This document shows, piece by piece, positions 3,011-59,660 of a stretch of DNA of 64,000 nt. The notes beneath the pieces were generated by a model that saw nothing but the letters and a program-made list of their open reading frames with translations, did not search any database and had not been told where the DNA came from. Made by a program: the position numbers and the translations under genes. The stretch is taken from the NCBI GenBank assembly GCA_041652815.1, contig JBAZGN010000002.1, forward strand, positions 238,261 to 302,260. The letters are read 5' to 3'. Source of the DNA: Candidatus Omnitrophota bacterium. Lineage in GTDB: Bacteria; Omnitrophota; Gorgyraeia; Duberdicusellales; 4484-171. The first letter of the stretch is position 1; each line of letters opens with the position of its first letter.

Positions 3011-3105
3011 ATGCTTGATGCTCGCTACTTGATGCTTGTAGAAAAAATAACGAGTATCTAGCATCTAGGATCGAGCATCAATGTTGAAGTTTTGGTATAA
3101 AAAAC

Positions 3106-4149
3106 ATGTTTGAAGAATTATTAAACAACAAAGATACGTGGTTAAGCGGAAAAGGGCCGTTTTCTGAAATAATTTTTTCATCCCGGGTGCGCCTGGCAAG
3201 AAACTTTTCAGATTATCCTTTCCCTCAACGTGCGACAATCATCCAAAAAGAAAAGATTTTAAAGAGCATGGAATCGGTGTGTACGAAAATCAGCACTTTT
3301 AAAAATATTATTTTTTTACGAATGGAAGAAGCTAGTGAAATAGACAGGCAGTTTCTTCTGGAGCGGCACCTTATAAGCCAGGAACATATGCATGTAGCAA
3401 AAGGTAAAGGGCTTATTCTATCATTAGATGAAAAAATCGCTCTTATGATAAACGAAGAGGACCATTTAAGGATGCAGGCCATGGCTTCAGGATTTGATTT
3501 GAAAAAGTGCTGGGAGGTAATCAACACAATTGATGACTCGATAGCTCAATTTGTAAATTTTTCATTTATGCCTAATTTAGGATATTTGACATCCTGCCCT
3601 ACTAATGTAGGAACCGCTCTTCGGGCCTCCTGCATGCTGCATTTGCCGGCGTTAACTTTTACAAAAAGAATAAATAAAGTTCTTGAGTTGCTTGCAAAGA
3701 TTTCTTTTGCTACAAGAGGATTTTTCGGCGAAGGCACACAGGCTCTTGGAGATTTTTTCCAGATTTCAAACCAGATAAGCCTTGGTTTATCAGAGCTGGA
3801 AGTTATAAATAATTTAGCTGGGGTAGTTAATCAGGTAAAAGAACAGGAAATTGATGCGCGTGAAATTTTATTAAAAAAACATAAGCTTGAGCTCGAAGAT
3901 AATGTCTGGCGGTCATACGGCGTTTTGCGTAATTGCCGCCTAGTTAGCAGCAAAGAAGCATTAAGCCATCTTTCTATATTGTCTTTGGGCCTGGATTTAG
4001 GTATAATTAATAGTATAAACAGAGCGCTGTTGAATAACTTGTTTCTAATGATCCAACCGGCTCATCTTCAGAAGATAGAAGCAAGAGTTTTAAAAGAAGA
4101 AGAAAGGGATTTTATAAGGGCTCAGATTTTAAGAGAGAAATTAAGTTAA
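3106..4149 (+). CDS. mcsB: Protein arginine kinase McsB (ATP:guanido phosphotransferase domain)
   Basis: The phosphagen-kinase signature CPTNVGTALRAS is present. The length is 347 aa. It sits in an operon context with mcsA and clpC. Confidence 0.85.
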   Translation: MFEELLNNKDTWLSGKGPFSEIIFSSRVRLARNFSDYPFPQRATIIQKEKILKSMESVCTKISTFKNIIFLRMEEASEIDRQFLLERHLISQEHMHVAKGKGLILSLDEKIALMINEEDHLRMQAMASGFDLKKCWEVINTIDDSIAQFVNFSFMPNLGYLTSCPTNVGTALRASCMLHLPALTFTKRINKVLELLAKISFATRGFFGEGTQALGDFFQISNQISLGLSELEVINNLAGVVNQVKEQEIDAREILLKKHKLELEDNVWRSYGVLRNCRLVSSKEALSHLSILSLGLDLGIINSINRALLNNLFLMIQPAHLQKIEARVLKEEERDFIRAQILREKLS

Positions 4150-4151
4150 AG

Positions 4152-4246
4152 ATAGAAGCGGATATCCGCGGATCTAAACGCGGATAAACGCAAGCTGATT
4201 GGCGTGCGTAAATCCGCGTAGATATCCGCGGCAATCCGCTTCTACT
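4152..4246. repeat. Intergenic dyad-symmetric element, family R1 (CGCGGAT words), copy A
   Basis: It is ~88% identical over ~90 bp to 59556..59645. It contains the ATCCGCGGAT palindrome and a nested AAACGCGGATAAACGC / GCGTAAATCCGCG inverted repeat. Confidence 0.8.
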
Positions 4247-4268
4247 AAAAAGGGAGGTAATAAGATCA

Positions 4269-6701
4269 ATGTTTAACAGATTTACAGAGAGAGCAAGAAA
4301 AGTTTTGGTTCTTGCGAAAGAAGAAGCAAGGCGTTTTAATCATGATTACATAGGCACAGAGCATATACTACTTGGTTTGGTAAGAGAAGGCGAGGGGGTG
4401 GCTTGTGCTGTTTTGCAGAATTTAGGTATTGATTTGGAGCGCTTGAGAATCGAAATAGAAAAACTGATTTCTCCCGGAAGCTCGGCTTCTGTTTTGGGAG
4501 AAATACCGTTTACACCGCGCGCCAAAAAAGCCTTAGAGCTTGCTGCTGAGGAAGCGCATAATCTGGGGCACAATTACATAGGCACAGAGCATATTCTCCT
4601 TGGCTTAATAAGGGAAGGCGAGGGGTTAGCTTCACAGGTCCTTTTTTCGTTAGGTGTTGATTTACGAAAAATAAGGGAAGAAATAGCAGCTCTTCTTGGA
4701 GGAGGCCAGTCTTATCAGGGGGCTGCCCCGCAGGCTACATCCAAAACCCCGGCATTAGATTCTTTCGGAAGAGATTTAACCAAACTTGCAAAAGAAGGCA
4801 AATTAGACCCGGTTATCGGCCGTAAAGGCGAGATAGAAAGAGTTATCCAGGTGCTTTCACGCAGGACCAAAAACAATCCTGTTCTTTTGGGTGAAGCTGG
4901 CGTAGGCAAAACTGCAATCGTAGAAGGTTTAGCTCAAAGCATAACACTTGGTGAGGTACCGGAGATTCTTCGGAATAAAAGAATAGTTGTGCTTGATTTG
5001 GCGCTGATGATAGCCGGAACAAAATACCGCGGGCAGTTTGAAGAAAGAATTAAAGCAGTAATGGAGGAAATAAAACGTTCCAAAGACGTTATTATTTTCA
5101 TAGATGAGTTGCATACTCTCGTTGGCGCAGGCGCAGCTGAAGGAGCGATAGATGCTTCAAATATTTTAAAGCCGTCCTTGTCCAGAGGGGAAATTCAGTG
5201 TATAGGTGCAACCACCCTTGATGAATACAGAAAATATATAGAAAAAGATGCGGCGCTCGAGAGGAGGTTTCAGCCGATAATCGTTGAGCCGAATTCTGTT
5301 GAAGAAACAGTTGAAATATTAAAAGGCCTACGCGATAAATACGAAGCGCACCACAGAGTTAAATTTTCTAATGAAGCAGTTGAGGCAGCATCAAAGCTTT
5401 CTGACAGGTATGTATCCGGAAGATTTTTGCCGGATAAAGCAGTTGATTTAATTGATGAGGCGGGTGCCCGCGCGCGTTTGGCGGTTTTGACGGCTCCGAA
5501 AGAGATAAAAGACCTTGAAGACAAATTAAATGGAATAGACCGCGAAAAAGAAGCTCTTATAAAACAGCAGGATTTTGAAGCAGCGGCACGGCTTCGTGAC
5601 GAAGAAAAAAAGCTACGGCTGCAGCTGGATTCTTTAAGAAAGGATTGGAGCAAAAAAAGAGACCAGATTATTCCGACTGTAAGCGAAGAAGATATTGCGC
5701 ATTTAGTTGCGCAAATTACAGGTATACCCATCTACAGGCTTGAAGAAAGAGAATCGGAAAAGCTTCTTAAGATTGAAGAAAAATTAACCGAAACAGTCAT
5801 CGGCCAGACAGAAGCCCTCCAGGCTATAGCGCGTTCTATCAGGCGTGCAAGGGCAGGGATAAAAGAGCCGCGCCGGCCAATTGGCTCATTTATGTTTCTC
5901 GGGCCAACCGGAGTAGGCAAGACTTTGCTTGCGCGGGCTCTTGCTGAACTTATGTTCGGTGATGAAGAGGCATTGCTTCAAATTGATATGAGCGAGTATA
6001 TGGAGAAATTCAATGTTTCAAGGCTTATAGGAGCCCCCCCCGGCTATGTAGGTTACGAGGAGGGAGGCCAGCTTACCGAACGTGTTAGAAGAAGGCCGTA
6101 TTCCGTAATTTTGCTTGATGAAATAGAAAAAGCCCATCCAGATGTGTTTAATTTACTTTTACAGATATTGGAAGAAGGCAGGCTTACCGACAGCTTCGCA
6201 AGAAAGATTGATTTTAGAAATACCATTTTGATAATGACTTCTAATGTTGGCGCTGAAATAATCAGGCAGCGTGGTTCCTTGGGTTTTAAGCCTCTGACAG
6301 AAGATATAGGCTACGAAGATATGAAGAACATGCTTCTTGATGAAGTAAAAAAAGCGTTTAAACCGGAATTTTTGAATAGGCTAGATGAGGTTATAGTTTT
6401 TAGGCCTCTTGGTAAAGAAGACCTTGGCAAGATAGTTGACATTGAGCTTTCCTACGTGAACAGCCGCCTGAAAGACCAGGGTGTTGAGGTCCAACTTTCC
6501 AATGATGCCAAGGATTTTTTTGTAGAGAAAGGTTTTGATCCGGTGTTTGGTGCGCGCCCTTTAAAGAGAGTTATACAAAGGTTTTTAGAGGATCCGTTGG
6601 CGGAAGATATAATAAAAGGAGAATTTACAGAGAGATTGAAAAAAGAAAAACCAGTGAAAATAAAAGTAACTAGAAAAGGCGAAGAATTGAAGTTTGAATG
6701 A
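4269..6701 (+). CDS. clpC: ATP-dependent Clp protease ATP-binding subunit ClpC
   Basis: Tandem Clp-N repeats, two AAA+ modules (GEAGVGKT and GPTGVGKT Walker A) and a UVR-like coiled coil between the AAA modules. The length is 810 aa. Confidence 0.9.
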
Positions 6702-10115: not shown

Positions 10116-10230
10116 CATAGCGCATAGCGCAAAGCGCGAAGCGTGAGAAACAGGAAGCAGAAGTCTTTATTTTCTATGTTCGAAATCTGCTATTTGTTTT
10201 CTTCATTTTTTCCGCTATGCGCCATGCTCT
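10116..10230. repeat. Intergenic dyad element (CATAGCGC / GCGCTATG words), singleton in this window
   Basis: CATAGCGCATAGCGCAAAGCGCG lies at the 5' end. The 3' end is CCGCTATGCGCCATGCTCTATGCGCCATGCG, in the reverse-complement sense. Confidence 0.6.
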
Positions 10231-11582: not shown

Positions 11583-12560
11583 ATGAAAGGTTTATTTATC
11601 ATCAGGGCTTTCTTTGTTTTTATCTGTACGGCCGCAGCATTTAGGCTGGGTGACTTTAATCCGTTATTGGCAACCAGTATAGGTTTTGCAGTCGGTCTAG
11701 TAGTTGTATTCTTCGAAGTTTTCGCGAGAAAAATTTCCTTAAAAGGGCTTTCTTCGGCAGTTTTTGGGATATTTCTCGGACTGCTTGTTGCCTGGATTTT
11801 TAACAGGACACTTGAATTATTTCTCTTGCCTAAAGAAATTACTTACAATATGAAAGTGTTCGTTACGTTCATATTTATTTATTTGGGAGTTACATTAGGG
11901 CTTAAAGGAAGAGGCGAATTTAACCTTATCATTCCTTATGTTAAATTCCAGCGTAAGGAACTAAAGGAAGAAACTATTGTTGTAGATACAAGCATAATTA
12001 TTGATGCAAGGATTCTAGATATAGTTAAAACCGGATTTTTAGAAGCGCGGTTTATTGTGCCGCGGTTTGTTTTAAACGAACTTCAGGCGCTGGCCGATTC
12101 AACCGATCACATGAAGCGCCAGAAGGGAAAACGCGGCATTGAAGTGTTGCACTCTCTTAAAAATGAACCCAATATAGAAATTGACATTTACAATGAAGAC
12201 GTAGAGGGGGTTAAAAGCGTTGACGAAAAGGTGGTTGTGCTTGCGCAAACTCTCGATGCAAAGATTATTACAACCGACTACAATTTAAACCGCATAGCCC
12301 AGTTACAGGGTATAAAAGTTTTAAATATTAATGACCTGGCAAATGCGCTAAAACCTACATTCGTAGCTGGCGAAAAGTTTTCCATAAAACTTATAAAAGA
12401 AGGGAAAGAACATAACCAGGCAGTTGGATACCTTGAAGACGGCACCATGGTGGTAGTAGAAAACGCTAAATGGCTAATTGGTAAAAATGTAGATATAGAA
12501 GTAACATCAGTTTTGCAAAGCCCAAGCGGTCGAATAGTATTTACGAGATTGGCAAGTTAA
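11583..12560 (+). CDS. PIN + TRAM domain membrane protein (YacL-like)
   Basis: N-terminal TM helices, a PIN-like central domain and a C-terminal TRAM-like beta domain. Its synteny after radA matches Bacillus yacL. Confidence 0.65.
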   Translation: MKGLFIIRAFFVFICTAAAFRLGDFNPLLATSIGFAVGLVVVFFEVFARKISLKGLSSAVFGIFLGLLVAWIFNRTLELFLLPKEITYNMKVFVTFIFIYLGVTLGLKGRGEFNLIIPYVKFQRKELKEETIVVDTSIIIDARILDIVKTGFLEARFIVPRFVLNELQALADSTDHMKRQKGKRGIEVLHSLKNEPNIEIDIYNEDVEGVKSVDEKVVVLAQTLDAKIITTDYNLNRIAQLQGIKVLNINDLANALKPTFVAGEKFSIKLIKEGKEHNQAVGYLEDGTMVVVENAKWLIGKNVDIEVTSVLQSPSGRIVFTRLAS

Positions 12561-12767
12561 AGAGATAATAGAGCCCATAAATCTTAGGTTACTCGCCTGT
12601 CACGGCAGGCAGGTTACGTAGGCCACAGGCTTTCAGCCTGCTGGGTAGGTTACGAAGGTTACATAAATAAAGTGATTTTAATGTAACTTCCGTAACTTTC
12701 GTAACTTAATTCTTCCGCCGAAGGCGAAAGAATTAACGTAACCTCCGTAACATTTATTGTAACGAAT
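12561..12767. repeat. Intergenic dyad element, family R2 (GGTTACG / CGTAACC words), copy A
   Basis: It has multiple GGTTACG words, then AATGTAACTTCCGTAACTTTCGTAACTT, with the embedded GC hairpin CCGCCGAAGGCG. It is related to 44449..44593. Confidence 0.7.
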
Positions 12768-13439
12768 ATGCCATCTAATGTCGGTGCTGTAATAGTTTGC
12801 GCAGGCAAGGGTAAGCGTTTAGGTGCTGATAAAGCTGCAATTAAATTAGAAGGTAAACCCCTCTTTTATCATACCTACAAGCTTTTTAAGGACATAAAGG
12901 CGATAAAACAAATCGTTATTGTCCTAAGAAAAAAGAATTTTACCCTTGCGCAAAAACTTATCAAAGACAAAAGAGTTTCTTTAGCTGAAGGAGGCGTGCG
13001 CCGTCAGGATTCTGTTTTTGCAGGGCTATCCCGATTGGATAAAAATATAGGCTATGTGCTTATTCACGACGGCGCGAGGCCTTTTACGCCAAGAGCGGTA
13101 ATAGTTGAAATGCTAAAGAATGTTAAAAAATACCCCGCAGTTATTTGCGCAGTTAAATCCAGAGACACATTAAAAGGCATTCGTGGTAATTTTGTAAAAA
13201 ATACTCTTAATAGAAATGATATAGCGATGGTCCAGACTCCCCAGGCTTTTAAGAAGAGCCTGTTGTTGGATGCATATCAAAAATTTAACCACAGGAATAC
13301 TTTTGACGATGCCGAGCTTTTTGAGTTTATGAAGAAAAAAGTAAGAATAGTAAATGGAAGCCACCGTAATATAAAAATTACCTATCCGCAGGATATGGTT
13401 TTGGCAAAAGCACTATTGAAGACGAAAGGTACCACGTAA
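12768..13439 (+). CDS. ispD: 2-C-methyl-D-erythritol 4-phosphate cytidylyltransferase
   Basis: The N-terminal AVIVCAGKGKRLG nucleotide-binding motif is present. The ~220 aa length fits, and it is followed by ispF. Confidence 0.8.
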   Translation: MPSNVGAVIVCAGKGKRLGADKAAIKLEGKPLFYHTYKLFKDIKAIKQIVIVLRKKNFTLAQKLIKDKRVSLAEGGVRRQDSVFAGLSRLDKNIGYVLIHDGARPFTPRAVIVEMLKNVKKYPAVICAVKSRDTLKGIRGNFVKNTLNRNDIAMVQTPQAFKKSLLLDAYQKFNHRNTFDDAELFEFMKKKVRIVNGSHRNIKITYPQDMVLAKALLKTKGTT

Positions 13440-13523
13440 CAGGTATCACGTAGCACGTCCTGACGTATGTAATTTTTTAAAGACGTGATACTTGATACGT
13501 GTTACCTGATACACTAAAGAATT
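13440..13523. repeat. Intergenic dyad element (ATCACGT / ACGTGAT words)
   Basis: The repeated words ATCACGTAGCACGTCCTGACGT ... GACGTGATACTTGATACGTG lie between ispD and ispF. Confidence 0.5.
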
Positions 13524-22071: not shown

Positions 22072-22177
22072 ACCTAATATTTACACCGCTAAAACGCAAA
22101 ATGCCGCGAAATCACAAAGTTTTGCGGTTTTGTTTTTGCGTCTTTGCGGATTTTAGCGGTTTTGCGGTGTTCACACA
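22072..22177. repeat. Intergenic dyad element, family R3 (ACACCGC...GCAAAA / TTTTGCGG...GCGGTGTT), copy A
   Basis: It starts with TACACCGCTAAAACGCAAAA and ends with TTTTGCGGTGTTCAC. It is related to 26256..26410. Confidence 0.65.
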
Positions 22178-26255: not shown

Positions 26256-26410
26256 ATATTTAAAGTGTTAAAAACTTTTTCTACACCGCAAACCCGCTAA
26301 AGACCGCAAAAAATGCAAAAGGAGAAATATCGATATACTGTAAAAATACAATGGAAATGCAATTTATTTTTTGCGATTTTGGTCTCCTTTGCGCCTTCGC
26401 GGTGTTTTCT
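26256..26410. repeat. Intergenic dyad element, family R3, copy B
   Basis: It runs TACACCGCAAACCCGCTAAAGACCGCAAAAAATGCAAAA ... TTTTTGCGATTTTGG ... GCGCCTTCGCGGTGTT. Confidence 0.6.
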
Positions 26411-27121: not shown

Positions 27122-27332
27122 TCTAAGGTTTTTTATGCAATTTGCAAACCTTATTGATGCACAGATGAGATATTCGTCTAACGGTTGCCTGCCCGCCGCA
27201 GGCGGGCGAGTTCGTTACGGTTGCGTTAAGCGCAGGGCGTCATTAAGACGCAACCGATAAACGATAGATGAAACGAGTCGCACAACCGATGGACGATTTA
27301 CGATATACTAAATCTGTGCCATAAACCTCACA
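27122..27332. repeat. Intergenic dyad element, family R4 (CAACCGAT / CGTTAC words + GC hairpin GCCTGCCCGCCGCAGGCGGGCGAG), copy A
   Basis: It shares the CAACCGATGGACG...ACGATATAC 3' module with 32084..32297. The GC hairpin module is present in reverse-complement orientation there. Confidence 0.7.
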
Positions 27333-32083: not shown

Positions 32084-32297
32084 AATACACAGACGATCAC
32101 AGATTGGAAAGCAGATTATCACAGATAGACTTGCGTTAATCGGTTGCGGTTACGCCGCTTGTATCGGTTGCGTTAATCGTCAATCGTCTTTTTGGACGCA
32201 ACCGAATAACGAACGATGAGATAAGCTCGCCCGCCAAAGGCGGGCAGGCAACCGATGGACGGAAGACGATATACCAAGTGTATTAAGGAGGATAAAG
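32084..32297. repeat. Intergenic dyad element, family R4, copy B
   Basis: It contains CTCGCCCGCCAAAGGCGGGCAGGC (the reverse complement of the copy A hairpin) and CAACCGATGGACGGAAGACGATATACC. Confidence 0.7.
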
Positions 32298-33599: not shown

Positions 33600-33679
33600 A
33601 TGCCCGATACTAGATTCTAGATACTCGTCGTTTTTATCACGGGCATCTAGCATCAAGTATCTAGAATCTATTTAGTAAT
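33600..33679. repeat. Intergenic dyad element, family R5, copy C (inverted)
   Basis: It runs GATACTAGATTCTAGATACTCGTCGTTTTT...CATCTAGCATCAAGTATCTAGAATCTA. Confidence 0.55.
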
Positions 33680-35438: not shown

Positions 35439-35543
35439 TAGAGAACAGATAGCAGAGTACAGAGAACAGAGAAAAAATAAGAGAGTTTGTTCTGTAATCT
35501 GTACTCTGTTTTCTGTACTCTTTCCGAGCGTAGCGAGGAAAAC
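35439..35543. repeat. Intergenic dyad element (ACAGAG / CTCTGT words)
   Basis: GAGAACAGATAGCAGAGTACAGAGAACAGAG lies opposite CTGTAATCTGTACTCTGTTTTCTGTACTCT. Confidence 0.55.
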
Positions 35544-40299: not shown

Positions 40300-40304
40300 T
40301 AATG

Positions 40305-40338
40305 ATTATTCCGGGTAAGTACGCTTACCCGGAATAAT
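40305..40338 (+). terminator. Hairpin ATTATTCCGGGTAAGT-ACGCTTACCCGGAATAAT after the OMP gene
   Basis: It is a 14-bp near-perfect stem, but it lacks a clean U-tract. Confidence 0.4.
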
Positions 40339-40355
40339 TTAAAAGAGGAGGTTAA

Positions 40356-42718: not shown

Positions 42719-43855
42719 ATGACTAAAACGAGCGTTGGCGCGGTTGAGACAAAATATTTTACTTTTGCAACTCCGCCCGAGGAGTTTATTCTTGAGAGTA
42801 AAGAGAGATTAAGCCCGGTTGTGCTTGCCTATGAAACATATGGCACGCTTAACCCGGATAAATCAAACGCGATTTTGATTTTACATGCTCTTTCCGGGGA
42901 TGCTCACGCGGCAGGATATTACAAAGATGAGGAAAAACCCGGTTGGTGGGATAATATGATTGGCCCGGGACGGGCTTTTGACACAGAAAAATATTTTGTT
43001 ATCTGTTCGAATATACTTGGAGGTTGCCGCGGCTCAACCGGCCCTTCTAGCATAAATCCTAAAACCAATAAACCATACGCCTTGGATTTTCCAGTTATAA
43101 GCATAGGCGATATGGTAGCAGCGCAAAAAGCATTGATAGATTATCTTGGCATTGATAAGTTGCTTACGGTTGTGGGTGGCTCAATGGGTGGAATGCAGGC
43201 TTTGGCGTGGCTCGTTAAATATTCCGATAGAATACGTAGCGCGATACCGATAGCCTGTGCGCTTAAACATTCTCCGCAGCAAATCGCTTTTGATGAGGTT
43301 GGCAGGCAGGCGATAATGGCTGATCCGGACTGGAAATCAGGGAATTACTACGGAGGAAAACCTCCGGACAAAGGCCTGGCTGTTGCAAGGATGCTTGGGC
43401 ATATTACCTACATGAGCGATATTTCTATGGCTGAAAAATTCGGGCGGCAGAAAAAAAATAACATTCAGCCTTTTAAGTTTACTGCCGATTTTGAGGTCGA
43501 GGGTTATTTGCATTACAGGGGGGATAATTTCGTAAAAAGGTTCGATGCGAATTCTTACCTTTACATTACTAAAGCCATGGATAATTTTGATGCATCGAAA
43601 GATAAACCATTGCACGAAGTGCTTTCCGGAAAACCCCTTAAGGTTTTGGTAATAGCATTTAAATCTGATTGGTTGTATCCGGTGTATCAGTCAAAAGAAA
43701 TCGTAAAAGTATGCAAACATGCCGGCATTGGAGCAAGCTTTTGCGAGGTTGATTCTACGTATGGCCACGACGCCTTTCTTTTAGAAACTGAAGAGGAAAC
43801 TCACCTTATTTCTCATTTTCTAAAAAGTGTTTCACAAAAACGAGGTAAAACATGA
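42719..43855 (+). CDS. metX: Homoserine O-acetyltransferase
   Basis: The alpha/beta hydrolase nucleophile motif GGSMGG is present. The RBS GAAGGAG precedes ATG 42719. Confidence 0.85.
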   Translation: MTKTSVGAVETKYFTFATPPEEFILESKERLSPVVLAYETYGTLNPDKSNAILILHALSGDAHAAGYYKDEEKPGWWDNMIGPGRAFDTEKYFVICSNILGGCRGSTGPSSINPKTNKPYALDFPVISIGDMVAAQKALIDYLGIDKLLTVVGGSMGGMQALAWLVKYSDRIRSAIPIACALKHSPQQIAFDEVGRQAIMADPDWKSGNYYGGKPPDKGLAVARMLGHITYMSDISMAEKFGRQKKNNIQPFKFTADFEVEGYLHYRGDNFVKRFDANSYLYITKAMDNFDASKDKPLHEVLSGKPLKVLVIAFKSDWLYPVYQSKEIVKVCKHAGIGASFCEVDSTYGHDAFLLETEEETHLISHFLKSVSQKRGKT

Positions 43856-44448
43856 AAGAAAACGAAATTATTAAAAGCGACCACAAAGCGATACTTGATA
43901 TGGTTGAGCAAAATTCATCAGTGCTTGATCTTGGTTGCGGCGGCGGAGAGCTACTTGAGCTTTTAACCCTGAGAAAAAATGTACGCGGCCAGGGCATAGA
44001 AATAGATGAGCAGGCGATATACAGGTGCGTGGCAAGGGGTTTAAGCGTGCTTCACGGCGATATAGATACCGGGCTTTCAGAATATAAAGATAAAGCTTTT
44101 GATTACATAATACTTAACCAGAGCCTCCAGCAGTTAAAGCACGTTGAAACTGTGCTTTTTGACGCGTTGAGAGTAGGTAAAAAAGTAATCGTTGGTTTTC
44201 CAAACTTTGCCTATTACCGGGCGCGCCTGCGCCTTTTCTTTAGAGGCAGAGTTCCTGTAACGGCGTCTCTTCCTTATACTTGGTATGAGACACCAAACCT
44301 GCACTTTTTGAGCACACTTGATTTTCTTGATTATTGCAGGGAAAAGAAAATCAAAGTTGAGCGCAAGGTGTATATTGCTGGAGAAAACCGTATATTCCTA
44401 TTGCCTAATTTTTTTGCGAACATAGGGATATTTCTTATTTCAAAATAA
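43852..44448 (+). CDS. metW: Methionine biosynthesis protein MetW
   Basis: The SAM-MTase-like motif is LDLGCGGG. It is coupled to metX. Confidence 0.75.
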   Translation: MKENEIIKSDHKAILDMVEQNSSVLDLGCGGGELLELLTLRKNVRGQGIEIDEQAIYRCVARGLSVLHGDIDTGLSEYKDKAFDYIILNQSLQQLKHVETVLFDALRVGKKVIVGFPNFAYYRARLRLFFRGRVPVTASLPYTWYETPNLHFLSTLDFLDYCREKKIKVERKVYIAGENRIFLLPNFFANIGIFLISK

Positions 44449-44593
44449 AAGGTTACGAATGTTACGCAGGTTACGAATGTTACGCAGGTCACACTTAATC
44501 ACGATGGTTCAATGTAACTTTCGTAACTTCCCGTAACCTGCCTCGCCTTGCTCGGCAAGGCGGGCATCCGTAACCCTCGTAACCCAAATAACA
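44449..44593. repeat. Intergenic dyad element, family R2, copy B
   Basis: It runs GGTTACGAATGTTACGCAGGTTACGAATGTTACGCAGG ... AATGTAACTTTCGTAACTTCCCGTAACC, with the GC hairpin CCTCGCCTTGCTCGGCAAGGCGGG. Confidence 0.7.
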
Positions 44594-46357
44594 ATGAATA
44601 TAATTTTAGTTGGTAATGCCAATGTTGGTAAAAGCGTTATCTTTAACGCGCTTACCAGAAGCTATGTCACTGTTTCGAATTACCCGGGCACAACCGTAGA
44701 CATATCAAAAGGCATAGCGAAACTCGGGCTACAGAATTTTACAGTCTACGATACGCCCGGGATAAACAGCCTCATCGTTCATTCCGAAGATGAAAAAGTA
44801 ACCCGCGATATACTTTCAAAAAGCGATATCACCTGCGTTGTACAGGTTGCTGACAGTAAAAACCTCAAACGTTCGCTTGTGCTCACCCTTGAGCTTATTG
44901 AATTGGGCCTGCCACTGGTGCTTAACCTAAATATGAGCGATGAAGCAAAAGAACGCGGCATAAGCATAGACATAAAAAAACTTTCTCAAAAATTGGGTAT
45001 AGATATTGTCGAAACAGTAGCGGTAACCGGAGAAGGTATTCCTAAATTAAAAGAAGCAATCTCCCGGGCGAAAACTACGCAACCGCCTAAAGGCTTTACT
45101 GTTTTTTCTTCTGATGAAATAGCCTCACTTAGGAAAAAAAATCAGAAAATTGAAGAATTATTGAGAGATATTTTGCGTATTTCAAAACCAAAAGCCAAAA
45201 GCGCGTCTGAATTTATAGGCGCTCTTACTGTAAGCCCCATAAGCGGAATACCAATACTTATTGTTGTGCTTTTTATAATGTATCTTTTTGTTGGTAGGTT
45301 AGCTGCTGTGTGGGGTGTAGATTTTTTTGAAAATAAGATATTCGGCCAATATATTAACCCGTTTTTAGGTGGTATTATAGATAAATTTATTCCAATACCA
45401 ATCGTCAAAGAATTTTTGATGGGTCAATATGGTATTATCAGCATGGCTGTTACTTACGCATTTGCCATAATATTTCCGATAGTAACTGCATTTTTTTTAT
45501 TTTTTGGAATACTCGAAGATTCAGGATACCTGCCGCGGCTTTCTGTGCTATCGGACAAGGTTTTTAGGATAATCGGGCTTAACGGCCGCGCAATACTTCC
45601 AATGGTGCTCGGCCTTGGCTGCGGCACAATGGCAACGCTGACCTCGCGGATATTGGAAACAAAAAAAGAGCGTATTCTGGTTAGTATTATACTTACGCTG
45701 GCGATTCCCTGTTCTGCACAGCTGGGCGTGATTATGGCAATGCTTAGCCAGTTTTCGCTAAGGGCATTTCTTCTTTGGTTTTCCACGATTCTTTTCGTCA
45801 TAATCACTATTGGATTTTTATCTTCGAGATTAGTTCCGGGTAAGCGTAGCCCATTTATTCAGGAATTACCTCCGATGAGGTTTCCCCAGATTGCAAACAT
45901 TATTGTAAAGACCGGCGCCCGCCTTAAATGGTACTTAAAAGAAGCAGTGCCTTTATTTATCCTTGGAACATTTATACTCTTTGTATCCGATAAAATAGGA
46001 TTGTTAAATTTAATAGAAAGAGTTTTAAGCCCATTTATTGTAGTCTGGCTGCATTTACCCAAAGAGACAACGGCTGCATTTATTATCGGCTTTTTACGAA
46101 GGGATTACGGCGCCGCCGGATTGTATCAATTGGCAAGAGCAGGCGTACTTGATAAAATACAAATTTTCGTAAGCCTTATTGTAATAACCTTGTTTGTGCC
46201 CTGTATTGCGCAGTTTTTCGTAACAGTTAAAGAAAGAGGCCTTAAAGTTGCGCTTATGATTGCCGGTTTCGTATTTCTTTTTGCATTTTTGGCAGGAGGG
46301 CTCTTGAATCATTTGTTGCGTTATTTGATTTTGGTGAAGGGGATAGCAGTGTTATAA
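44594..46357 (+). CDS. feoB: Ferrous iron transporter FeoB
   Basis: The N-terminal G domain (GNANVGKS, DTPG) is followed by a polytopic membrane domain. Confidence 0.8.
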   Translation: MNIILVGNANVGKSVIFNALTRSYVTVSNYPGTTVDISKGIAKLGLQNFTVYDTPGINSLIVHSEDEKVTRDILSKSDITCVVQVADSKNLKRSLVLTLELIELGLPLVLNLNMSDEAKERGISIDIKKLSQKLGIDIVETVAVTGEGIPKLKEAISRAKTTQPPKGFTVFSSDEIASLRKKNQKIEELLRDILRISKPKAKSASEFIGALTVSPISGIPILIVVLFIMYLFVGRLAAVWGVDFFENKIFGQYINPFLGGIIDKFIPIPIVKEFLMGQYGIISMAVTYAFAIIFPIVTAFFLFFGILEDSGYLPRLSVLSDKVFRIIGLNGRAILPMVLGLGCGTMATLTSRILETKKERILVSIILTLAIPCSAQLGVIMAMLSQFSLRAFLLWFSTILFVIITIGFLSSRLVPGKRSPFIQELPPMRFPQIANIIVKTGARLKWYLKEAVPLFILGTFILFVSDKIGLLNLIERVLSPFIVVWLHLPKETTAAFIIGFLRRDYGAAGLYQLARAGVLDKIQIFVSLIVITLFVPCIAQFFVTVKERGLKVALMIAGFVFLFAFLAGGLLNHLLRYLILVKGIAVL

Positions 46358-46443
46358 TATTACGCAGATGATCACAGTTAAAATCATCTGTGATCATCTG
46401 TTTTGCTATCTGCGATCATCTGCGTATAAAAAAGGAAAATAAA
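46358..46443. repeat. Intergenic dyad element (CAGATGATCACA words)
   Basis: GCAGATGATCACAG...ATCATCTGTGATCATCTG...CTGCGATCATCTGCG lies between feoB and the regulator gene. It may be the operator for the DtxR-like repressor. Confidence 0.5.
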
Positions 46444-47097: not shown

Positions 47098-47144
47098 CAT
47101 TTATAATAAATTGATACCTAAGCTATTTGTAATTTAAGATAGCA

Positions 47145-47282
47145 AATTAAACAGGGGAGGTCGTGAAACGACCTGAGAGTTCCCGTAAACGGGATTACCC
47201 TTTGAACCTGTTCCGCTTTAGGCGGAACCACCTAAATATCTGTATGGGGTGGTGGTCTGGATAATGCCAGCGTAGGGAGTAG
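47145..47282 (+). promoter_or_regulatory. TPP (THI-box) riboswitch
   Basis: The GGGGAGG...CTGAGAG J3-2, ACCCTTTGAACCTG and CTGGATAATGCCAGCGTAGGGAG core are present. It lies upstream of thi4-thi4-thiM-thiE. Confidence 0.7.
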
Positions 47283-47297
47283 GTGTAATCATAATTA

Positions 47298-47346: not shown

Positions 47347-48147
47347 ATGTTTGAAAGGGTAAGTGAGGCGCAAGTAAGCAGGGCGATTGTCGGTGAATTT
47401 ACTAAATGGTTTCAGGAATATATTGTTTGTGATGCAATTATCATAGGCGGCGGACCAAGCGGGCTTGTAGCGGCGAAAGAATTGGCAAGCTCAGGATTTA
47501 AAACTTTAGTAGTTGAGAGTAATAATTATATCGGTGGAGGTTTCTGGATTGGTGGATATTTGATGAATACCTTAACCTTTCGATCGCCTTCCCAGGAAAT
47601 CCTTGATGAGCTTAAAATTCCATATAAAGAGGTAGAGAATAATTTGTTTGTTTCTGATGGGCCTTCGGCATGCTCCAAACTCATTTCTGCCGCATGTGAC
47701 GCGGGGGTAAAAATTCTTAACATGACAAAATTTGACGATGTTGTGCTTCGAAACAACAGGGTGGAAGGGGTTGTTATTAATTGGACGCCAGTATCGGCAT
47801 TACCAAGAGCTATAACTTGTGTAGATCCTATTTCGTTGGAGTCCAAGATTGTTATTGATGCTACAGGGCACGATGCATGGGTTTGTAAAAGTTTGGAAAA
47901 AAGGCATTTAATAAAGCTTGAAACTTTTGGCCCTATGGATATTAATACTTCGGAAGATGCTGTAGTTGAAAAGACAGGAGAGATTTATCCGGGCTTGTTT
48001 GTGTCAGGTATGGCCGTATCTACAGCGTATGGTATACCTCGTATGGGCCCGACTTTTGGTGCGATGTTGTATTCCGGTAAAAAAGTGGCAAGTCAGGTAA
48101 AGAAAATATTATCAGCTAATTCCCAAGATTTACTTCATGTCAAATAA
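47347..48147 (+). CDS. thi4: Thi4-family thiazole synthase, paralog 1
   Basis: The FAD/NAD Rossmann motif IIGGGPSGL, the ATGHDA motif and the C-terminal GMAV...GIPRMGPTFGAM motif are present. Confidence 0.75.
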   Translation: MFERVSEAQVSRAIVGEFTKWFQEYIVCDAIIIGGGPSGLVAAKELASSGFKTLVVESNNYIGGGFWIGGYLMNTLTFRSPSQEILDELKIPYKEVENNLFVSDGPSACSKLISAACDAGVKILNMTKFDDVVLRNNRVEGVVINWTPVSALPRAITCVDPISLESKIVIDATGHDAWVCKSLEKRHLIKLETFGPMDINTSEDAVVEKTGEIYPGLFVSGMAVSTAYGIPRMGPTFGAMLYSGKKVASQVKKILSANSQDLLHVK

Positions 48148-59555: not shown

Positions 59556-59645
59556 TAGCGGATTACCGCGGAACTAAACGCGGATAAACGCATGCTAATT
59601 CGCTTGCGTAAATCCGCGTAGGTATCCGCGGCAATCTGCTTCTAT
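59556..59645. repeat. Intergenic dyad element, family R1, copy B
   Basis: It is ~88% identical to 4152..4246. Confidence 0.8.
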
Positions 59646-59660
59646 AGCAAGGAAAAACAA

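Follow-up and report, generated by a model that had tools for sequence, protein, structure and literature searches.

Here, we describe a repeat, R2, that is present twice in a 64,000-nt stretch of the genome of a Candidatus Omnitrophota bacterium (contig JBAZGN010000002.1, positions 238,261 to 302,260; the window in the following). Both copies lie between two genes on the + strand. Element 1 (R2 copy 1; 12584..12767, + strand, 184 nt) fills the spacer between a gene for a YacL-like PIN/TRAM protein (yacL; 11583..12560, + strand) and ispD (12768..13439, + strand; named IspD, Candidatus Omnitrophica), while element 2 (R2 copy 2; 44449..44593, + strand, 145 nt) fills the entire spacer between metW (43852..44448, + strand) and feoB (44594..46357, + strand). 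The gene coordinates are from the list of open reading frames (ORFs), and Pfam matches on identical or orthologous contigs agree with the gene order given in a first-pass annotation of this DNA, i.e. the PIN/TRAM gene followed by ispD and metW followed by feoB. The two elements are the sole clusters of the words GTTAC and GTAAC in the window, as judged from a word scan and from a profile hidden Markov model (HMM) of the family, which matches element 1 with E=9e-17 and element 2 with E=1.3e-27. Each cluster consists of 9-10 words within <200 nt, and in both copies the words have the polarity ++++ followed by -----(-).

Element 1 is made up of a TTAG terminus, a left array of GTTAC words, a centre, a right array of GTAAC words and three nested hairpins; all features are given for the + strand. 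The first GTTAC word is 27 nt from the stop codon of yacL. The left arm (12588..12662) has GTTAC at 12588, 12613, 12649 and 12658 and, between these words, hairpins at 12596-12609 (CCTGTCACGGCAGG) and 12623-12644 (CCACAGGCTTTCAGCCTGCTGG). The latter comes after GTTACGTAG, i.e. at the position of a CCAACAGG…CCTGTTGG hairpin in three other copies of the family (L010, L075 and L083; L numbers designate loci on other contigs). The 20-nt centre, or loop (ATAAATAAAGTGATTTTAAT; 12663..12682), as delimited from sequence and alignment, runs into the pivot AATGTAAC (12680-12687), and the right arm (12683..12763) has GTAAC at 12683, 12692, 12701, 12738 and 12747 with an extra word at 12759. A further hairpin (TTAATTCTTCCGCCGAAGGCGAAAGAATTAA; 12706-12736), which contains CCGCCGAAGGCG, is located between right-arm words 3 and 4. 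The last GTAAC word and the ATG of ispD are 4 nt apart, without a visible Shine-Dalgarno sequence.

Element 2 begins closer to its upstream gene, with 3 nt between the stop codon of metW and the first GTTAC word. In the left arm (44452..44492), GTTAC words at 44452, 44461, 44470 and 44479 follow a strict 9-nt period, and a degenerate GTCAC is found at 44488. The centre (ACTTAATCACGATGGTTCAAT; 44493..44513) is 21 nt long, the pivot AATGTAAC is at 44511-44518, and the right arm (44514..44583) has GTAAC at 44514, 44523, 44533, 44570 and 44579. As in element 1, a hairpin separates right-arm words 3 and 4; this GC hairpin (GCCTCGCCTTGCTCGGCAAGGCGGGC; 44540-44565) is optional and missing from the copy in the orthologous spacer of L096. 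The ATG of feoB lies 10 nt past the last word, again with no visible Shine-Dalgarno sequence. Direct reading of the sequence and the location of the words, thus, support the claim of the first-pass annotation that both spacers share one architecture. The string AATGTAACTT(C/T)CGTAACTT(T/C)CGTAAC that it reported for both is exact for element 1, while element 2 has one extra C (…CGTAACTTCCCGTAAC).

The clusters stand out clearly from the sequence background. The word GGTTACG occurs 18 times in the window compared to 3.8 +/- 2.1 times after shuffling, with 0/100 shuffles reaching 18, and the densest 200-nt segment has 10 GTTAC/GTAAC words, while in 100 first-order Markov simulations the count was 2.8 on average and never exceeded 4. 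Outside both elements, the frequency of these words is ordinary (87 observed versus ~75 expected for the whole window). Moreover, element 1 is identical in three independent assemblies (L001-L003) and, therefore, is no assembly artefact. TAA and TAG triplets arise in several frames from the GTAAC and GTTAC words, and no ORF spans either window copy; among 16 elements of the family, three are spanned by weak opposite-strand ORFs. The GTTAC/GTAAC observation is, in other words, confirmed, and both spacers contain real copies of a non-coding, hairpin-forming repeat.

The first-pass annotation had proposed that the inverted repeat GGTTACG…CGTAACC can form a stem-loop of >100 nt, and had named two outcomes that would speak against it, i.e. 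the lack of a stable common fold and the lack of further family members. Neither was obtained. Both copies have strong predicted RNA folds (-71.4 and -71.0 kcal/mol for the + and - strands of element 1; -62.4 and -67.2 kcal/mol for those of element 2), z-scores are between -5.8 and -7.6 for both elements on both strands, and no shuffle equals them. With DNA parameters, z is -8.6 for element 1 and -6.5 for element 2. A canonical copy from another genome (L004) is predicted to fold as a single hairpin of five words by five words (-45.2 kcal/mol, z -8.7). Left GTTAC word n pairs with right GTAAC word n, numbered outward from the centre, and the extra hairpins of the window copies form branches off this main stem. 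In the specified 36-pair structure, 93.5% of cells pair versus 28-44% with the partners slid. Thus, either strand of R2 is predicted to be able to fold into one long imperfect hairpin.

Within this hairpin, no known signal was recognized. A scan for the sigma-70 promoter consensus, with -35 and -10 hexamers 16-18 nt apart, gave no + strand site inside either element, and the sole + strand promoter-like site near element 1 (12540-12569) straddles the yacL stop codon upstream of the element. Intrinsic terminators have a GC-rich stem of 5-20 bp that is directly followed by a U-tract. A terminator consensus scan gave no terminator-like site inside either element, and the outer stem is followed by ATTTATT or CCAAATAAC and not by a U-tract. 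Rfam 15 gave 0 matches in the window at the gathering threshold and, for the elements, only noise at permissive E-values (plant miRNA models, E ~0.7).

The search for further clusters showed that R2 is a family of repeated elements, as had been claimed, with members in other genomes and in metagenomes. When one genome per species was scanned with AATGTAACTTYCGTAACTT, 10 loci were obtained, seven of which are in the Omnitrophota metagenome-assembled genomes (MAGs) STA_84, SO_2017_LW3_58, SO_2016_LW1_52 and DBS2-5.bin57; the three others (L007, L008 and L011) match by chance. With a right-arm pattern, 76 loci were obtained from metagenomes. Nine low-GC contigs among these carry family copies, seven of them new; most loci were discarded as coding repeats of the V-T-S type, direct 9-nt arrays with a variable number of tandem repeats (VNTRs) or integrase-associated arrays in high-GC contigs. 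The copy in the metW-feoB spacer of L096 (10598-10694) was recognized by synteny. In total, we found 17 elements. They occupy 15 non-orthologous intergenic loci in no fewer than five named MAGs and in further metagenome contigs, so that the family is scattered over several Omnitrophota genomes. The profile HMM, run on 654 kb, added only the L096 copy and gave no more copies in the window, in ~114 kb of close relatives (beyond L096) or in a 5-kb extension past the window end; a scan of viral contigs gave 0 matches. Because every true copy scores 30-45 bits higher in one orientation with the HMM, the polarity of R2 is well defined despite its palindromic design.

The canonical form, which is cleaner in Omnitrophota MAGs than in the window copies, is ~105 nt long and has five GTTACGRRN units, a centre of ~20 nt and five YYYCGTAAC units, together giving one long imperfect hairpin (GTTACgaatGTTACgaaaGTTACgtagGTTACgaagGTTACa-[about 20 nt]-aatGTAACtttcGTAACttcccGTAACatccGTAACcttcGTAACa). 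The unit period is 9 nt in the left arm and 9-10 nt in the right arm (regularly 9/10/9/9), and the spacers between words are near-identical across copies (gaat/gaaa/gtag/gaag in the left arm and tttc/ttccc/atcc/cttc in the right arm). The arms differ by whole units (1-5 words in the left arm, 3-6 in the right arm), and L067 has a duplicated GTAACATCC unit. The centre ends in (A/G)(A/G)TGTAAC. Beyond the words, the termini read W-W-A-G on the left, with A invariant at -2, and M-T-A-A-A on the right, i.e. TTAG…CTAA/ATAA in AT-rich ends of approximately tATTTAtAG…(A/C)TAAATa. Overall, the elements are 79-184 nt long.

The GC hairpins described in the first-pass annotation as part of the architecture are optional modules that are absent from most family members. 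All observed optional hairpins sit in spacers between words and none within a GTTAC/GTAAC word; therefore, the helices formed by the words stay intact. From a reading of the sequence, the two most used insertion sites, gtag/ttccc and gaaa/atcc, are the poorly pairing spacers of the canonical stem. The flanks of L010, L075 and L083 differ, but all three copies have GCCAACAGGCCACCCTGTTGGGC as a nested hairpin right after GTTACGTAG; this hairpin is missing from L006, the ortholog of L010 in another MAG. This composite subfamily at three unrelated loci appears to have been copied as a unit. The CCAACAGG…CCTGTTGG hairpin that is nested in these three copies is also present alone, as CCCAACAGGGCGTCCTGTTGG, in an insert between radA and yacL in L090; therefore, the elements are mosaics of separable palindromic units. 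As for the radA-yacL gap itself, it is 2 nt in the window, L091 and L093, while inserts of 148-180 nt are present in L090 (1467-1646) and L092 (8836-8983). Finally, in L066 (749-861, - strand), the central 22 nt are the reverse complement of the L010 centre (21/22), while the arms have normal polarity. Such a flip of the centre, a change at the level of the DNA, is as would be expected from recombination or template switching between inverted arms.

Copies of R2 take up nearly all of the short spacer between genes of the same direction and are co-oriented with these genes. With orthologous pairs counted once, 14/15 loci are co-oriented with the flanking genes (two-sided binomial p ~0.001). A same-strand gene ends just upstream in 14/16 elements, and in 13 of these 14 the stop codon is 0-35 nt before the first word. 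In 7/14 the distance is <=9 nt which, from a reading of the distances, would place the stop codon within the inferred AT-rich terminus. On the other side, 12/16 elements are followed by a same-strand gene whose start is 4-32 nt past the last word. L005 is upstream of a co-oriented gene, and L035 has the inverted orientation and is part of a 5' leader where, as read by eye from the sequence, it is located between a TTGACA/TATAAT pair and the start codon. No recurring family of neighbour genes was found near the copies. About half of the genes that follow an element lack a visible Shine-Dalgarno sequence. For instance, feoB starts with an ATG without a Shine-Dalgarno sequence in two genomes with the element and with a GTG after AAGGAAGG in two genomes without it.

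For each window locus, we compared five syntenic relatives. The yacL-ispD spacer, which is 207 nt in the window and contains the GTTAC element, is only 36 nt in L092 and has a small hairpin followed by the T-rich run CTTTAATTT. In L091 (167 nt), an L092-type small hairpin is accompanied by an unrelated insert with its own inverted ends, and in L090 (2625-2734, 110 nt) and L093 (9925-10000, 76 nt) the spacer has a different word-array palindrome with GTCAGA/TCTGAC words. Similarly, the metW-feoB spacer contains the GTTAC element in the window and a 97-nt element of the same family with four plus four words and no GC hairpin in L096, a CACGAAT/ATTCGTG word palindrome with CCCGCC hairpins in L094 (4086-4215), and an unrelated spacer that is homologous between L095 and L097. 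The presence of other palindromes in spacers orthologous to those of the window copies implies that these sites have been repeatedly colonised by non-homologous elements. In a gene tree from 1316 aligned residues, the window is nearest L095 (93.8%) and L096 is nearest L097 (90.5%), and, therefore, the presence of the element at metW-feoB contradicts vertical descent. The insert in L091 (9870-10000) is ~125 nt relative to the L092 spacer and has inverted ends (CCCCGTTAGAGAA…TTCTCTAATGGGG) and internal hairpins; it looks MITE-like (MITE, miniature inverted-repeat transposable element) and has no word arrays.

Copies of R2 are 76-96% identical across genomes whose four-fold sites are 57-66% identical. 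The orthologous elements in L006 and L010 are ~96% identical versus 64% at four-fold sites of the adjacent gene, and element 2 and the L096 copy share 86/97 aligned bases versus the same 57-66%. By BLAST, element 2 is ~84% identical to non-orthologous copies and 76% identical to L096. Because element 2 is closer to non-orthologous copies than to L096, independent insertion or homogenisation explains the data equally well, and we dropped the conservation between these two as proof of selection. The pattern is one of family-wide homogeneity and not of simple vertical conservation, and it could result from ongoing copying, from gene conversion or from selection that acts on each copy. In a separate observation, a conserved promoter-like pair (TTGACC-N17-TATAAT/TATACT) is present downstream of the orthologous elements (L006:7640-7860, L010:2640-2870) and is followed by a ~150-nt non-coding stretch that is conserved far above the four-fold sites and may be an unannotated small RNA; this stretch has no Rfam match at the gathering threshold.

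R2 is only one among many word-array palindromes in the window. Nineteen of the 32 window spacers of >=40 nt fold with z <= -3.2, and most of these belong to other dispersed families, in which tandem units of 7-12 nt make up two inverted arrays. In spacers between co-directional genes, there are at least eight such families besides R2. Two sites each are occupied by arrays of the words GCGGAT (4150-4268 and 59556-59660), ACCGCAAA (22072-22177 and 26256-26410), GATGCT/TAGAT (3011-3105 and 33600-33679), GTTGATAA (1483-1558 and 2435-2524) and CGGTTGC with a GC hairpin (27122-27332 and 32084-32297), as does GCAGATGATCAC (46358-46440 and 32084-32126), while CATAGCG (10116-10230), GTATCACGT (13440-13523) and ACAGAG (35439-35527) are found once. 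By BLAST, several of these families recur at non-orthologous sites in other Omnitrophota contigs. With such families in the window and in its relatives, R2 is one family of a broader class.

Based on these data, we suggest that R2 is probably a non-autonomous foldback or MITE-like dispersed repeat of Candidatus Omnitrophota that behaves like ERIC or Correia elements. R2 has spread as a unit to unrelated sites between genes in several genomes; orthologous sites show turnover of the element, and the copies within a genome are homogenised. Like MITEs, it is non-coding and <~300 bp, has terminal inverted repeats, and is present at multiple non-homologous sites with presence/absence polymorphism. 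In this model, R2 would be copied in trans by an unnamed enzyme or would spread by gene conversion or recombination, and would occupy the sole permissible sites of a compact genome, namely the few bases from a stop codon to the next start codon. Because R2 is embedded in conserved strings of genes and has no promoter or terminator consensus, it would most likely be transcribed as part of a polycistronic mRNA. In this mRNA, it would form a double-stranded hairpin of ~45 bp that, by analogy with REP, ERIC and Correia elements, would plausibly act as a processing, stability or partial-termination signal between cistrons. The orientation bias would result from selection on the transcript or from strand-specific insertion.

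Several observations weigh against this model. There is no transposase or partner gene near the family loci, and in all 16 of the 16 elements found with the scan patterns both arms are within ~30 nt, so that no autonomous copy is among them. No gene for a RAYT, the IS200-like Y1 transposase that is flanked by the repeats in REPIN-RAYT systems, is evident in the ORF lists and in the Pfam matches of syntenic contigs covering part of the window, although no dedicated IS200-like search was made. The copy density is low, with two copies in ~69 kb of this genome and one in ~114 kb of close relatives. TA is present one base outside the words in 11/17 left and 13/17 right flanks, but these flanks are AT-rich and the TA may belong to the TTAG/CTAA terminal inverted repeat; also, among the compared spacers, there is no filled/empty pair with flanks conserved at nucleotide resolution. 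Most copies were found using right-arm patterns and, therefore, the invariance of the right-arm words R1-R3 is partly built in; the synteny-found L096 copy deviates in these words. The strong orientation bias and the conservation of primary sequence into unpaired spacers are more in line with a function that depends on sequence than with a MITE that is purely selfish. As for the proposed role in the RNA, RNAalifold and pair counts on a 16-sequence alignment gave no covariation beyond shuffled controls, a result that is uninformative rather than negative because the helices scarcely vary. Comparison of minimum free energies gave no advantage of the sense over the antisense strand for 16 elements (p=0.86) or for 17 structured window spacers (p=0.26). 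The sole evidence for a strand-specific role is the orientation bias and, because nearly all genes here point one way, this bias could also stem from insertion specific to a replication strand.

Alternatively, R2 could be a host cis-regulatory RNA module, i.e. an intercistronic hairpin under purifying selection that sets the relative expression of the flanking cistrons. It could do so as a site of RNase III-type processing, as a barrier to 3'-exonucleases or as an attenuator, or it could take the place of Shine-Dalgarno-dependent initiation; its dispersal would be ancient or incidental. This idea is in line with the co-orientation with transcription at 14/15 independent loci, the filling of the spacer from stop codon to start codon, the lack of a visible Shine-Dalgarno sequence in front of about half of the genes downstream and its presence before feoB where the element is missing, the conservation of copies far above that of four-fold sites, and the restriction of optional hairpins to sites between words. 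However, covariation and an advantage in stability of the sense strand are missing, the long hairpin is not always preserved given that the left arm may have as little as one word, the central loop can flip as in L066, L035 has the inverted orientation and is part of a 5' leader, unrelated sequence serves as the same spacer in sister genomes, and Rfam has no match. We, therefore, regard such a module as possible but unlikely. The conservation of primary sequence in the words and in the unpaired spacers (TTCCC and ATCC), and not of structure alone, would also be accounted for if R2 were an ordered protein-binding array on DNA, or possibly on RNA, in which iteron-like words spaced by 9 nt are coated by an oligomeric protein (a transposase or recombinase, a ribbon-helix-helix or nucleoid protein, or a ring-shaped RNA-binding protein) and the hairpin is a by-product. 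The regular periodicity and the variation of the arms by whole units are as expected for such an array. Moreover, arrays of three GTAACTTCC units flank a tyrosine-integrase gene in L018, and direct GTAACTTYC arrays adjoin promoter-like regions in unrelated contigs; both are plausibly protein sites. On the other hand, no candidate protein gene is linked to any copy, the at least eight other word families in the same 64 kb would mean that a small genome codes for many specific proteins, sites with a 9-bp period are not, according to established DNA geometry, on one face of B-DNA, and the conservation of R1-R3 is inflated by the search pattern. Overall, we find a protein-binding array rather doubtful.

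The proximity of the elements to stop codons, the small hairpin with its T-rich run in the element-free L092 spacer, and the whole-unit changes, which are as from slippage, could suggest that the copies are overgrown intrinsic or bidirectional terminators that expanded in situ by slippage and hairpin-templated repair without any dispersal. This is very improbable. Neither element contains a terminator-like site or has a U-tract after the outer stem, canonical terminators exist separately in these genomes (e.g. at 40300-40355 in the window and adjoining L066), and near-identical composites at 15 unrelated loci in several genomes cannot arise independently. Finally, beyond the AT-rich background, nothing suggests that a common pentamer clustered by chance, that the sequence is of low complexity or that it arose as an artefact of assembly. 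The word density in the simulations, the GGTTACG shuffles, the three assemblies and the homologous copies in other MAGs rule these explanations out for all practical purposes. Thus, we favor a dispersed foldback or MITE-like repeat. A bolder idea, to which we give little credence, is that R2 is one family of a phylum-specific system of word-array hairpins in most co-directional spacers, each family having its own word. These hairpins would function as sequence-addressed platforms in operon mRNA or in DNA that are read by oligomeric proteins with specificity for the periodic words and set processing, termination or re-initiation between cistrons, and not as passive selfish DNA. If so, the conservation of the unpaired spacers, the co-orientation at 14/15 loci and the loss of Shine-Dalgarno sequences downstream would reflect function.

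In the course of the scans, we also observed arrays of similar words in other contexts. In L018, inverted copies of …CTCTCTAC…TTCCGTAACTTCCGTAACTTCCGTAAC… (3974-3996 and 5866-5888) flank a tyrosine-recombinase (phage-integrase-like) gene, which is adjoined by a large primase/helicase-like ORF. The GTAAC 9-mer arrays in L018 and in the also high-GC L081, L036, L028, L034 and L079 may be recombinase arm sites or iterons of an integrative element; the L018-type organism and system are unrelated to the Omnitrophota repeat. Direct GTAACTTCC or GTAACTTTC arrays are present in L020, L022, L032, L038, L039 and L042, which represent one locus in different samples, and in L030, L082, L064/L086 and L029. 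These arrays behave as 9-nt VNTRs, with copy numbers from 4 to >13 at one locus across metagenome samples, while some arrays at other places are part of a coding sequence and in frame with it (V-T-S repeats). L046:5118-5264 (= L078), L040:786-934, L017:3108-3230, L056:3233-3373 and L031:103-218 have inverted GTTAC…GTAAC arrays whose spacers differ from those of the family, with inserted G5/C5 hairpins in L046 and L040. They match the family HMM weakly (E 1e-7 to 1e-12) and may be distant relatives or independent inventions. In the window itself, a thiamine pyrophosphate (TPP) riboswitch match (47143-47295, + strand) lies upstream of a Thi4-like gene (47347-48147). The match covers the full model length and has E=2.6e-07 but its score of 46.6 bits is below the gathering threshold of 54.3, and, thus, it is absent from the window scan at that threshold. 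It is ~50 nt longer than the model, suggesting an insertion, and the spacer is conserved in L095-L097.

Omnitrophota are uncultured bacteria with very small cells. To our knowledge, nothing is known about their gene-expression signals and mobile DNA, and a literature search turned up no paper that mentions R2 sequences or repeats of this kind in Omnitrophota. With R2, a defined and searchable repeat family is now available with a consensus, modules, an orientation and termini, and similar word-array palindromes occupy more than half of the longer spacers in the window. If only selfish, these repeats would be markers for strain typing, for the detection of binning and assembly errors, and for studies of spacer turnover in compact genomes. 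If active in transcripts, they would represent the main intercistronic signals of the phylum and natural hairpins that are able to pair in several registers.

Several well-known arrangements of repeats were considered and rejected. The attC sites of integrons consist of RYYYAAC…GTTRRRY core sites around an imperfect hairpin and are located downstream of mobile cassettes beside the IntI integrase. In R2, the order with GTT first and AAC last on both strands is the reverse of that in attC, and the flanks are syntenic housekeeping genes. CRISPR (clustered regularly interspaced short palindromic repeats) arrays have direct repeats of 23-50 nt with unique spacers of similar length, while R2 has 9-nt units, two inverted arrays and no unique spacers. 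An iteron origin and a riboswitch were rejected based on the anatomy, and a plain intrinsic terminator because the elements have no terminator-like site inside and no U-tract.

Closer parallels are found among dispersed intergenic repeats. The BOX elements of Streptococcus pneumoniae resemble R2 in being small modular intergenic repeats in which the copy number of an internal unit varies and for which stable RNA structures are predicted. In Porphyromonas gingivalis, a MITE reportedly contains a minisatellite (PMC4596501) and, thus, provides a bacterial case of tandem repeats inside a MITE-like element. In BOX and, reportedly, in the P. gingivalis MITE, the tandem module lies between distinct end modules, while in R2 the tandem units make up both inverted arms. 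REP/BIME and REPIN-RAYT elements are reportedly extragenic palindromes between co-transcribed genes and, like R2, form mosaics of small palindromic units with several families per genome; in R2, the mosaic consists of word arrays and GC hairpins as well as the CCAACAGG hairpin that also occurs alone in L090. REP/BIME, too, may have strand- or orientation-specific biology. However, a REP unit is a single palindrome of 20-40 nt with a conserved 5' tetranucleotide, and a REPIN consists of two such units in inverted orientation. By contrast, a single R2 arm is a direct array of 9-nt units without self-pairing and pairs only with the other arm, so that R2 falls outside REP/REPIN; also, its copy number appears much lower than that of REP.

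Correia elements (CREE/NEMIS) of Neisseria and TA-flanked MITEs such as Nezha are similar to R2 in having 100-160 nt, terminal inverted repeats, an intergenic location and the ability to fold into hairpins. Correia elements are co-transcribed, and their RNA hairpins are cut by RNase III. The TA borders of Correia/Nezha-type MITEs are compatible with the R2 flanks, although a TA duplication in R2 is only putative. Also, the inverted repeats of Correia are unique 26-bp sequences and not arrays of 9-nt units, their copy density in Neisseria is much higher, and some Correia copies carry promoters, while none was found in our scans of R2. Among these elements, the behavior of R2 would match best the pattern of ERIC, or IRU, which is said to occur in Enterobacteria and Vibrio. 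Like R2, ERIC elements are imperfect palindromes, ~100-130 nt long, in intergenic transcribed regions, with a sequence that varies little from species to species while the locations differ. ERIC has tens of copies per genome, internal insertions at fixed positions and no known transposase. However, by eye, no sequence relationship is seen, the arms of ERIC are not made up of short tandem units, ERIC is present in both orientations while R2 is co-oriented at 14/15 loci, and the phylum differs; we treat ERIC as a functional and behavioral analogue only. With respect to architecture, the closest match to R2 would be the foldback (FB) elements that reportedly occur in Drosophila and other eukaryotes. 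FB elements, too, have inverted terminal repeats composed of short tandem sub-repeats, arms whose length differs among copies and also within a copy from one arm to the other, and a snap-back hairpin that involves the whole element, while they differ in being eukaryotic, kilobase-scale, flanked by a 9-bp target duplication and sometimes endowed with coding loops; this likeness implies no evolutionary link. Overall, R2 belongs to the known bacterial intergenic palindromic or MITE-like repeats, and what sets it apart is its arms made up of tandem units and its many sister families.

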